10,981 nt of DNA from a virus (lineage: Duplodnaviria; Heunggongvirae; Uroviricota; Caudoviricetes), in IMG/VR virus record IMGVR_UViG_2562617057_000004, positions 1 through 10,981 of that record; one strand, 5' to 3'. Positions within the stretch are counted from its first letter, which is position 1; each line of letters opens with the position of its first letter. The notes beneath the pieces are model-generated. The model did not search any database and had not been told where the DNA came from. It saw only the letters and a program-made list of their open reading frames with translations. Both the position numbers and the translations under genes were made by a program. Of this stretch, positions 1,505-1,720 are shown in pieces.

Positions 1505-1720
1505 AAACGCGGCATATATGTCCGGTTTGAGTGTTCAATTTTTGCGCATGTCCGGTTCACGGAAAGTGAATTTTTATATTTTTCAAATAGTTAACTCCCA
1601 GAAAAACCGGACATGGTTTCCGAAAAATTTTCATAAATAGTGAAATTCTGCGCCGCTCCCGCCCCGTAACGGGTCCATATGCCGGAAAGGACCCGTAAAA
1701 AAAGCCGGATTTCTCCGGCC
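1505..1720 (-). other. Lambda-type cohesive end site, copy A (cosQ, variant cosN, cosB with three R-like repeats)
   Basis: Minus strand ACGGGTCCTTTCCGGCATATGGACCCGTTACGGGGCGGGAGCGGCGCAGAATTTCACTATTTATGAAAATTTTTCGG aligns with recalled lambda ...ACGGGTCCTTTCCGGTGATCCGACAGGTTACG/GGGCGGCGACCTCGCGGGTTTTCGCTATTTATGAAAATTTTCCGG; ATGTCCGGTT repeats at 1605-1614 (inverted), 1548-1557 and 1518-1527. Confidence 0.75.
1697..1719 (-). terminator. Rho-independent terminator after the 137-aa ORF
   Basis: Minus strand GCCGGAGAAATCCGGC followed by TTTTTTT, a few nt after the stop at 1725. Confidence 0.6.

Follow-up and report, generated by a model that had tools for sequence, protein, structure and literature searches.

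Phage-inducible chromosomal islands (PICIs) that occur in Gram-negative bacteria have been delineated by Fillol-Salom et al. (PMC6092414), and the cos (DNA-packaging) sites of one such island, EcCICFT073, are experimentally functional (PMC6092414, PMC6739421). In the cos sites of phages lambda and 21, the R2 box of cosB runs opposite to both R3 and R1, with R1 oriented like R3 (PMC9026076). Here, we describe a cos site, termed cos-B, in a stretch of 10,981 nucleotides (nt) that comprises positions 1 to 10,981 of the IMG/VR virus record IMGVR_UViG_2562617057_000004 (hereafter, the window) and that a previous, sequence-only reading had singled out as a complete lambda-like cos with a variant cosN. 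The window is a PICI of the EcCICFT073 family that lacks Rpp, and cos-B is a complete lambda-type cos. It looks functional, and we put at about 0.72 the probability that the island is packaged from it directly, by helper terminases that recognize its phage-type cosB.

Anatomy and probable ancestry of cos-B

The cos-B site spans window positions 1721 to 1500 on the minus strand (Table 1; positions within the site are counted in bp from the predicted top-strand nick) and was compared with the fetched lambda genome ends, anchored at the nick. Its cosQ heptamer, GGGTCCT, lies within the ~17 to 30 bp upstream of the nick, at a spacing identical to that of the lambda right end, and its cosN keeps the left half GGGCGG and the CG pairs beside both nicks, reading ACG, GGGCGGGAGCGG, and CGC in succession. 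As had been claimed, the 12-mer is 7/12 identical to that of lambda (GGGCGGCGACCT), with changes at bp 7, 8, 9, 11, and 12; in kind, these five right-half changes fall within the published natural range (PMC4669245). The predicted nicks (top strand, 1665/1664; bottom strand, 1653/1652) match the ends of the records of phages cdtI and Tritos, which lend indirect support to staggered nicking that would leave 12-nt 5′ cohesive ends. In the spacer to the right of cosN, 28/36 positions agree with lambda and 36/36 with a lambdoid prophage of Escherichia coli CFSAN029787, and the cosB beyond it contains three exact copies of ATGTCCGGTT within 100 bp. With one mismatch allowed, 0.68 copies of this box are expected in the whole window and four were found, a count reached in 1 of 200 shuffles.

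The cosB elements are positioned as in lambda and 21, with R3 at ~bp 50 to 65, an integration host factor (IHF)-consensus-like site at the I1 position, and R2 at ~bp 108, followed by R1; the annotated phage 21 record places R3 at ~bp 50 to 65, I1 at bp 72 to 86, and R2 at ~bp 107 to 122. The IHF-like match is not significant by count alone, and its position equals that of the annotated phage 21 I1. The order read initially from the sequence (inverted R3, AT-rich stretch, R2, R1) therefore stands for the positions and for the three exact boxes, but R1 departs from the lambda/21 pattern: it runs like R2, which is thus opposite to R3 only, and sits ~12 bp closer than in lambda or 21. The box sequence itself is unrelated to that of lambda (CGTTTCC) or 21 (TGTCGG). 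Since R1 is oriented like R2 also in phage PhiR12_1, the CFSAN029787 prophage, and EcCICFT073 cos2, we take this orientation to be a subclass difference that leaves the cos character intact.

Resemblance to known cos sites is significant. BLAST of cos-B against 50,697 phage records gave E values of 3e-45 to the PhiR12_1 cos and 8e-9 to the annotated phage 21 cos, and an 88-nt query gave 4e-4 to lambda-type cos records. Counted from the nick, identity to lambda is 30/45 on the cosQ side and at background level in cosB, beside the values for the 12-mer and the spacer (bp 13 to 48) given above. All of the elements that the sequence-only reading had listed lie at their minus-strand positions with lambda/21-like spacing, although its “cosQ hairpin,” while real, is the terminator of the preceding 137-aa gene, situated just before cosQ. 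Also unlike lambda and 21, cos-B is followed by no terminase genes.

In origin, cos-B appears to be a three-part mosaic of an island cos1-type cosQ, an mEp460-type cosN allele, and a captured phage cosB that brought along the start of nu1. The 30 nt from cosQ to the nick (GGGTCCTTTCCGGCATATGGACCCGTTACG, 1694 to 1665) recur unchanged in EcCICFT073 cos1 and in the cos of the EH41 island. From 1667 to 1368 (i.e., from the ACG adjoining cosN to nu1 codon 24), the window is 96% identical to the CFSAN029787 prophage, which shares the 12-mer and the R boxes of cos-B and has complete genes for Nu1 (169 aa; Pfam Phage_Nu1) and a gpA-type protein. The R boxes are invariant, with the same spacing, across the window, PhiR12_1, this prophage, and EcCICFT073 cos2, and the repeat set is consequently not the site's own, contrary to the first proposal. 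The I2-R3-I1-R2-R1 cosB and 24 codons of nu1 were probably captured from a lambdoid phage of the PhiR12/CFSAN029787 type. Phages PhiR12_1 to PhiR12_5 and the CFSAN029787-type prophage share with cos-B the R boxes, their spacing, and the element at the IHF position; the prophage also has the cos-B cosN allele, whereas the PhiR12 phages have the canonical GGGCGGCGACCT, and both differ from the window in having their own cosQ flanks and full terminase genes.

Of nu1, which encodes the terminase small subunit (TerS), only the start remains. Its 24 residues are all identical to the CFSAN029787 Nu1 (24/24 by tblastn, E 1.4e-10), a protein 93.5% identical to PhiR12 Nu1, and the N-terminal helix-turn-helix (HTH) regions of the PhiR12_1 and CFSAN029787 proteins are identical over ~30 aa. 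Beyond the remnant, the open reading frame (ORF) runs on to 74 aa in unrelated sequence, and RefSeq labels the remnant a pseudogene fragment in the identical island. The HTH gene reported in the place of Nu1 is this fusion, and we rejected the reading that a genuine HTH regulator or a terminase gene follows cos.

The junctions of the mosaic fall within intervals that include the nicks. Relative to EcCICFT073 and EH41, the island's breakpoint lies between bp −3 and +6, spanning the top-strand nick. The CFSAN029787 prophage is identical to mEp460 through cosQ, cosN, and CGC and is of lambda-I2/PhiR12 type thereafter, which places its breakpoint between bp 12 and 16, spanning the bottom-strand nick. 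Both are compatible with the two nick positions and may reflect packaging that was initiated and terminated at heterologous cos sites, after which the mismatched ends would anneal and replication would resolve the heteroduplex to give both junction types. Both outcomes were obtained experimentally by Feiss et al. with lambda and N15, which have a 2-nt mismatch (PMC4669245). The junctions could equally well have arisen through short-homology recombination in ACGGGGCGG.

The island and its second cos site

On its minus strand, the window reads as a single island of ~10.9 kb with the gene order integrase, AlpA, Ash-family ORF, DUF4222, D5-type primase, SSB, capsid, decoration, 137-aa gene, cos, and a 99-aa ORF (Table 1), a gene complement that matches that of the Gram-negative PICIs (PMC6092414). 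With the archetype, EcCICFT073 (taken for comparison from the CFT073 genome), it has in common int, alpA, pri-rep, the capsid gene c1499, the decoration gene c1500, and c1501; it is of PICI size (~11 kb), contains no lysis or tail genes, and has an att-like 27-mer, attL being outside the window. The c1499- and c1500-like genes lie upstream of cos, and the block comprising capsid, decoration, and 137-aa genes shows 91.5% nucleotide identity to c1499–c1501 over 2.3 kb. What the island lacks is an Rpp gene just downstream of cos together with an Rpp-type cosB (CACCACCAC...), the cosB of cos-B being of phage type. A tblastn search of the window with RppA (c1503), a query that matches the RppC crystal-structure sequence (PDB 6HLK) with E = 5e-31, yielded no homologue, and searches with lambda Nu1, 21 gp1, the EH41 Nu1-like protein, and a DUF1441 TerS recovered only the 24-codon remnant.

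The packaging region also differs from that of the archetype in its layout. EcCICFT073 has the 12-mer GGGCGGCGACCT and carries its cos2 in inverted orientation downstream of rppA, whereas the window has GGGCGGGAGCGG, joins a cos1-type cosQ to a cos2-type cosB in direct orientation, keeps the nu1 codons, and carries, upstream of the capsid genes, an additional cos of mEp460 type. Similarity to cos2 itself amounts to 82.7% over 179 nt, including the R3/I1/R2/R1 array with its invariant R boxes. EcCICFT073 cos2 (L264 3163 to 3340) thus belongs to the PhiR12 type of phage cos, as its ATGTCCGGTT array shows; in the literature searched, cos1 and cos2 are discussed only by the two Penadés papers, whose authors could not identify the cosB of cos2. 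The match is a small new point, and it suggests a candidate helper class.

Table 1. Features of the window and of its two cos sites
Feature	Position	Strand	Remarks
Tyrosine integrase	10981-9743	-	Pfam; EH41-like
AlpA	within 9420-9124	-	Pfam
Ash-family ORF, 415 aa	9113-7866	-	Ash domain only at residues 270-363
DUF4222	7179-6892	-	Pfam
D5-type primase	6895-5141	-	Pfam; uninterrupted
SSB	4596-4174	-	Pfam
cos-A	3980-4133 (~3980)	-	2,440 bp upstream of cos-B, same orientation, same 12-mer
Lambda-E-type major capsid gene	3553-2498	-	Pfam Phage_cap_E, 9e-50
Lambda-D-type decoration gene	2486-2151	-	Pfam HDPD, 2.9e-17
137-aa gene	2138-1725	-	Third gene of the capsid module (1725-3553), between the two cos sites
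Rho-independent-type terminator hairpin	1702-1721	-	8-pair stem, then T run; closes the 137-aa gene, immediately upstream of cosQ
cosQ heptamer GGGTCCT	1688-1694	-	30-24 nt before the predicted top-strand nick
GTTACG	1665-1670	-	Adjoins the cosN 12-mer
cosN cohesive-end 12-mer GGGCGGGAGCGG	1653-1664	-	Conserved CG flanks at 1666-1665 and 1652-1651
Spacer, bp 13-48	1617-1652	-	Begins with CGC; holds I2-like CACTATTTATGAAAATTTT at 1642-1624
R3 box ATGTCCGGTT	1605-1614	-	bp 51-60
IHF-consensus-like site, 1 mismatch	1581-1593	+	I1 position, bp 72-84, A/T-rich stretch
R2 box ATGTCCGGTT	1548-1557	+	bp 108-117; inverted relative to R3
R1 box ATGTCCGGTT	1518-1527	+	bp 138-147; oriented as R2
nu1 (terminase small subunit) remnant, first 24 codons	1368-1439	-	Phage homology stops at 1368
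Probable attR core, 27-nt repeat	173-199		96% to L001 1453-1479, just upstream of EH41 int

The second cos site, cos-A, combines cosQ GGGTCCT (4133 to 4127) and cosN GGGCGGGAGCGG (4104 to 4093) with an mEp460-type right side, reading GGGTCCTCCCGGTGTAGTGACCTGCCACG, GGGCGGGAGCGG, and CGCGGAAAAAGGCTAGTTTTTGAAATTTCATTCGTCATCACCACTACTGTAATGG... in succession. At the position equivalent to R3, it has a 12-pair inverted repeat (4050 to 4021) and a perfect IHF consensus (4043 to 4031). Over ~95 nt, its identity to the mEp460 cos is 96.8%, and similarity extends out to ~bp 125. Phages mEp460, cdtI, and Tritos have a TerS of the DUF1441 family, and the right side of their cos (CGCGGAAAAAGGCTAG..., inverted repeat, DUF1441 TerS) is unrelated to the lambda-I2/Nu1-type side of cos-B. 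EcCICFT073 has no cos-A, and its EH41 relative has a degenerate, 11-nt version.

Such closeness to the cos of an isolated phage could mean that cos-A is the working site, served by mEp460-type helpers, and that cos-B is used for termination only or not at all, in keeping with the orientation and 12-mer that the two sites share and with the fact that termination needs only cosQ and cosN, not cosB (PMC4669245, PMC9026076). We regard this as possible but doubtful: if cos-B served in termination alone, its full and exact cosB would not have been preserved; the absence of cos-A from EcCICFT073 and its degenerate state in EH41 count against this reading; and co-resident cos sites in these islands often differ in their cosN allele.

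Multiple cos sites are general in these islands (2 to 4 sites, of two families, direct or inverted). Their alleles match in some multi-cos relatives and differ in others, both being seen for direct and for inverted pairs, and we rejected, as a general rule, the idea that islands are selected to carry the same cosN allele at each of their cos sites. The EH41/IHE3034-type island (L001 11725 to 11803 and 8425 to 8470) has three cos-like sites: one in direct orientation that has the canonical 12-mer, one that is inverted and lies downstream of a 180-aa Nu1-family gene, and, at the cos-A position, a degenerate one with the 11-nt GGGCGCGGGAT. No similarity of the 180-aa protein to RppA or RppC was detectable, and a PDB search with it and with the window's 137-aa protein produced no match. 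At ~bp 50 to 62, the Rpp-type PICI cosB (CACCACCACCAC; in EH41, GGTGGTGGTGG) and the mEp460/DUF1441-type cos both have CAT/CAC/CAG motifs repeated three to four times (window 4049 to 4062, L264 ~2609 to 2625, and L001 ~10940 to 10955), which hints that the site recognized by Rpp is related to the mEp460/DUF1441 class of phage cosB.

Elsewhere in the island, the region of the Ash-family ORF (7866 to 9113) is annotated in related islands as truncated ash or Icd pseudogenes, and the sign of the GC skew flips across 7500 to 9000. At window position 5874/5875, within the primase gene, an IS110-family insertion of ~1.5 kb is present in E. coli VL7S7, an O121 strain, and the IMG/VR loci L006 and L007. 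The island end and flank (window 1 to 290) are only ~85% identical to the region upstream of E. coli clpS, although E. coli-derived contigs match the interior at 100% identity. PADLOC, applied to the island ORFs, matched no defense system.

Proposed packaging from cos-B

With neither Rpp nor a terminase gene in the island, direct mimicry of a helper's cos is the likely mechanism of its packaging. A helper Nu1-type TerS (PhiR12/CFSAN029787 type), together with IHF, would bind the R boxes and position the helper's gpA-type large subunit (TerL) to introduce the two nicks at cosN, 12 bp apart. Island concatemers would then be packaged unidirectionally, toward lower window coordinates (the side of the nu1 remnant), into helper capsids, until a later cosQ–cosN is reached. 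In addition, cos-A would open the island to helpers of a second class, mEp460-type phages with a DUF1441-family TerS, and could also act as a terminator, for which cosQ and cosN suffice (PMC4669245). Cleavage, the identity of the helper, and the use of both cos sites are here predicted from the sequence. In outline, this mode resembles that of the cos-type Staphylococcus aureus pathogenicity islands (SaPIs) more closely than the Rpp mechanism of EcCICFT073 (PMC6739421): SaPIbov5, for example, is likewise a terminase-free satellite with its helper's own cos and a capsid-protein homologue. The likeness is one of working only, SaPIbov5 having unrelated sequences and an unrelated host; EcCICFT073 is packaged in full-size capsids.

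Near-identical copies of the island (99.7 to 100% over ~8 kb) occur in E. coli VL7S7, FDAARGOS_943, and an O121 strain, where they have a different integrase, occupy the tRNA-Pro/yejM-yejO site, and have insertion sequences (IS) in int and/or the primase gene. Among 5,426 complete E. coli genomes, cos-B is present in 3, all of which are among the 8 with a phage-type cos of the same cosN and cosB. This co-occurrence lends circumstantial support to a helper relationship; we rejected it as strong evidence, as the three genomes share the insertion site and the IS scars. The portal gene of the VL7S7 prophage contains another PICI of the same family (L263 18160 to 28401), with int, primase, SSB, capsid, decoration, and Nu1-like genes.

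Several observations weigh against packaging from cos-B. The lineage is rare (the 3 genomes of 5,426), and with all three copies at one chromosomal site, the association with matching prophages may reflect clonal descent. The prophages themselves are damaged: that of CFSAN029787 has a frameshifted portal gene, and that of VL7S7 has IS600 in TerL as well as the second island in its portal gene. R1 is unlike that of lambda and 21 in orientation and distance, and TerL would have to tolerate the five-change allele in the lambda-I2 context. Furthermore, EcCICFT073 cos2, which has the same type of cosB, is dispensable for transfer mediated by lambda and phi80 (PMC6092414), a result tempered by the fact that these helpers carry a different TerS.

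Some of this damage could be taken to mean that cos-B is an inert recombination scar, i.e., a prophage cos-nu1 fragment in a decaying island that is no longer packaged from it: nu1 is cut to 24 codons, the copies in complete genomes have an IS-disrupted int and/or primase, the matching prophages are degraded, and the lineage is rare. We consider this unlikely. All subsites of cos-B are undamaged and lie at the proper distances, its R boxes are exact copies, the int, alpA, and primase ORFs of the window copy are intact, and a cos site works without an adjacent terminase gene. Moreover, the same cos module is found with two integrase modules and chromosomal sites (EH41-like in the window, tRNA-Pro in VL7S7), and two integrase contexts for one module point to recent mobility or modular exchange.

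Natural variation at cosN and the large terminase

The variant sticky end is a known natural allele and not novel, and the site is in this sense a real but fairly ordinary feature. The isolated phage mEp460 carries exactly GGGCGGGAGCGG, and cdtI and Tritos match it at 11/12 positions: the first 12-mer of their records is GGGCGGGAGCGT (the start reads GGGCGGGAGCGTCGCGGAAAAAGGCTAG), and the Tritos record ends in ...CCTGCCACG (...CCACG). These record ends follow the lambda cohesive-end convention and place the nick where it was predicted. A scan of the genome collection for the variant cosN plus flank returned one real match, a Citrobacter prophage with an mEp460-type cos; two further matches, to Planctomycetota and Ignavibacteria metagenome-assembled genomes, were judged to be due to chance. 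A literature text search for the variant 12-mers found only unrelated papers on G-quadruplexes and primers.

We surveyed two lambda-like cos families in IMG/VR (loci L013 to L132 and L140 to L258 cover both). The mEp460-type family is represented by at least 124 sites, and among these listed matches, the GGGCGGGAGCGT/GGGCGGGAGCGG allele group is the commonest, with at least 52 and at least 16 sites, respectively, followed by GGGCGGCGTGCT (at least 11) and others. Among the matches listed, the lambda-I2 family has 131 sites, with GGGCGGCGACCT at 98, GGGCGGAAGGCG at 11, GGGCGGGAGCGG at 7, GGGCGGCAGCGG at 6, and others; its alleles are found with cosB of the lambda, 21, and PhiR12 types and beside several different cosQ flanks. 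Across the two families, cosN alleles reassort independently of the cosQ flank and of the type of cosB. In both, the left half and the flanking CG are essentially constant, and variation is confined almost entirely to bp 7 to 12.

Natural right-half variation of cosN has been published (PMC4669245) and is reportedly also the subject of Vahanian et al. 2017 (cited in PMC12315714). N15, phiD326, and Gifsy-1 are natural right-half variants, the lambda and N15 terminases are not cosN specific, and mutations in bp 7 to 12 (e.g., C11G) have minimal effect, whereas left-half changes such as G2C are severe (PMC4669245). The window allele, with five changes from lambda, exceeds these variants in number: N15 and phiD326 differ at bp 9 and 12, Gifsy-1 (whose allele we read directly as GGGCGGCAGCGT) at bp 8, 9, and 11, and mEp213/LLS (GGGCGGCGCGCT) likewise by fewer changes. 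With five mispaired positions, it is reasonable to hold, as the sequence-only reading did, that the predicted ends would be unable to anneal with lambda ends; a 2-nt mismatch between cohesive ends costs about fourfold in yield (PMC4669245). For self-cyclization, this has no bearing, as a packaged unit takes its two ends from one and the same allele.

The variant had also been thought to imply a matching helper terminase, a view that the TerLs do not support. Among 56 TerL ORFs extracted downstream of cos sites, one beside a GGGCGGAAGGCG cosN shows 100% identity, across 641 aa, to one that adjoins the canonical 12-mer; TerLs that are 99.4 to 100% identical adjoin canonical and GGGCGGAAGGCG or GGGCGTCAGGCG cosN; and six others beside variant alleles are 98.8 to 99.8% identical to canonical-cosN TerLs. 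As identical TerLs occur beside different cosN, a helper must match the island through TerS and cosB rather than through TerL and cosN. The variant end would then need no special TerL, since anchoring by TerS would make nicking there insensitive to sequence. That the changed cosN represents a new cleavage specificity requiring a co-evolved TerL is very improbable: the CFSAN029787-type TerL is indeed only 92% identical to its nearest canonical-cosN counterpart, and the allele does occur with a particular prophage, but the 53 differences between this TerL and that of PhiR12_1 are scattered along the protein, all of the cosN changes lie in bp 7 to 12 with the left half and flanking CG kept, near-identical TerLs adjoin different alleles, and lambda TerL nicks right-half mutants (PMC4669245).

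For specialists, the site itself holds little surprise, natural right-half cosN variation and PICI cos sites having both been published, and these findings open no long-standing question; what is new is the combination of known parts and the existence of an Rpp-less member of a known satellite family. The survey of TerLs and 12-mers supports, in natural populations, what lambda genetics had found, namely that cosN is functionally asymmetric. Tentatively, and with less confidence than in packaging from cos-B as such, one could imagine that this island lineage gave up Rpp redirection in favor of two direct, helper-type cos sites (Nu1/PhiR12 and DUF1441/mEp460) forming a multi-helper cassette, with breakpoints that fit the nicks; if so, the shared cosN allele would yield self-complementary ends from any pairing of initiation and termination sites. 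With its cosB matched to PhiR12-type phages, EcCICFT073 cos2 gains a candidate phage class. More broadly, an Rpp-less member with a phage-type cosB suggests that satellites of this family switch between two strategies, redirecting the helper's TerS and mimicking the helper's cos.

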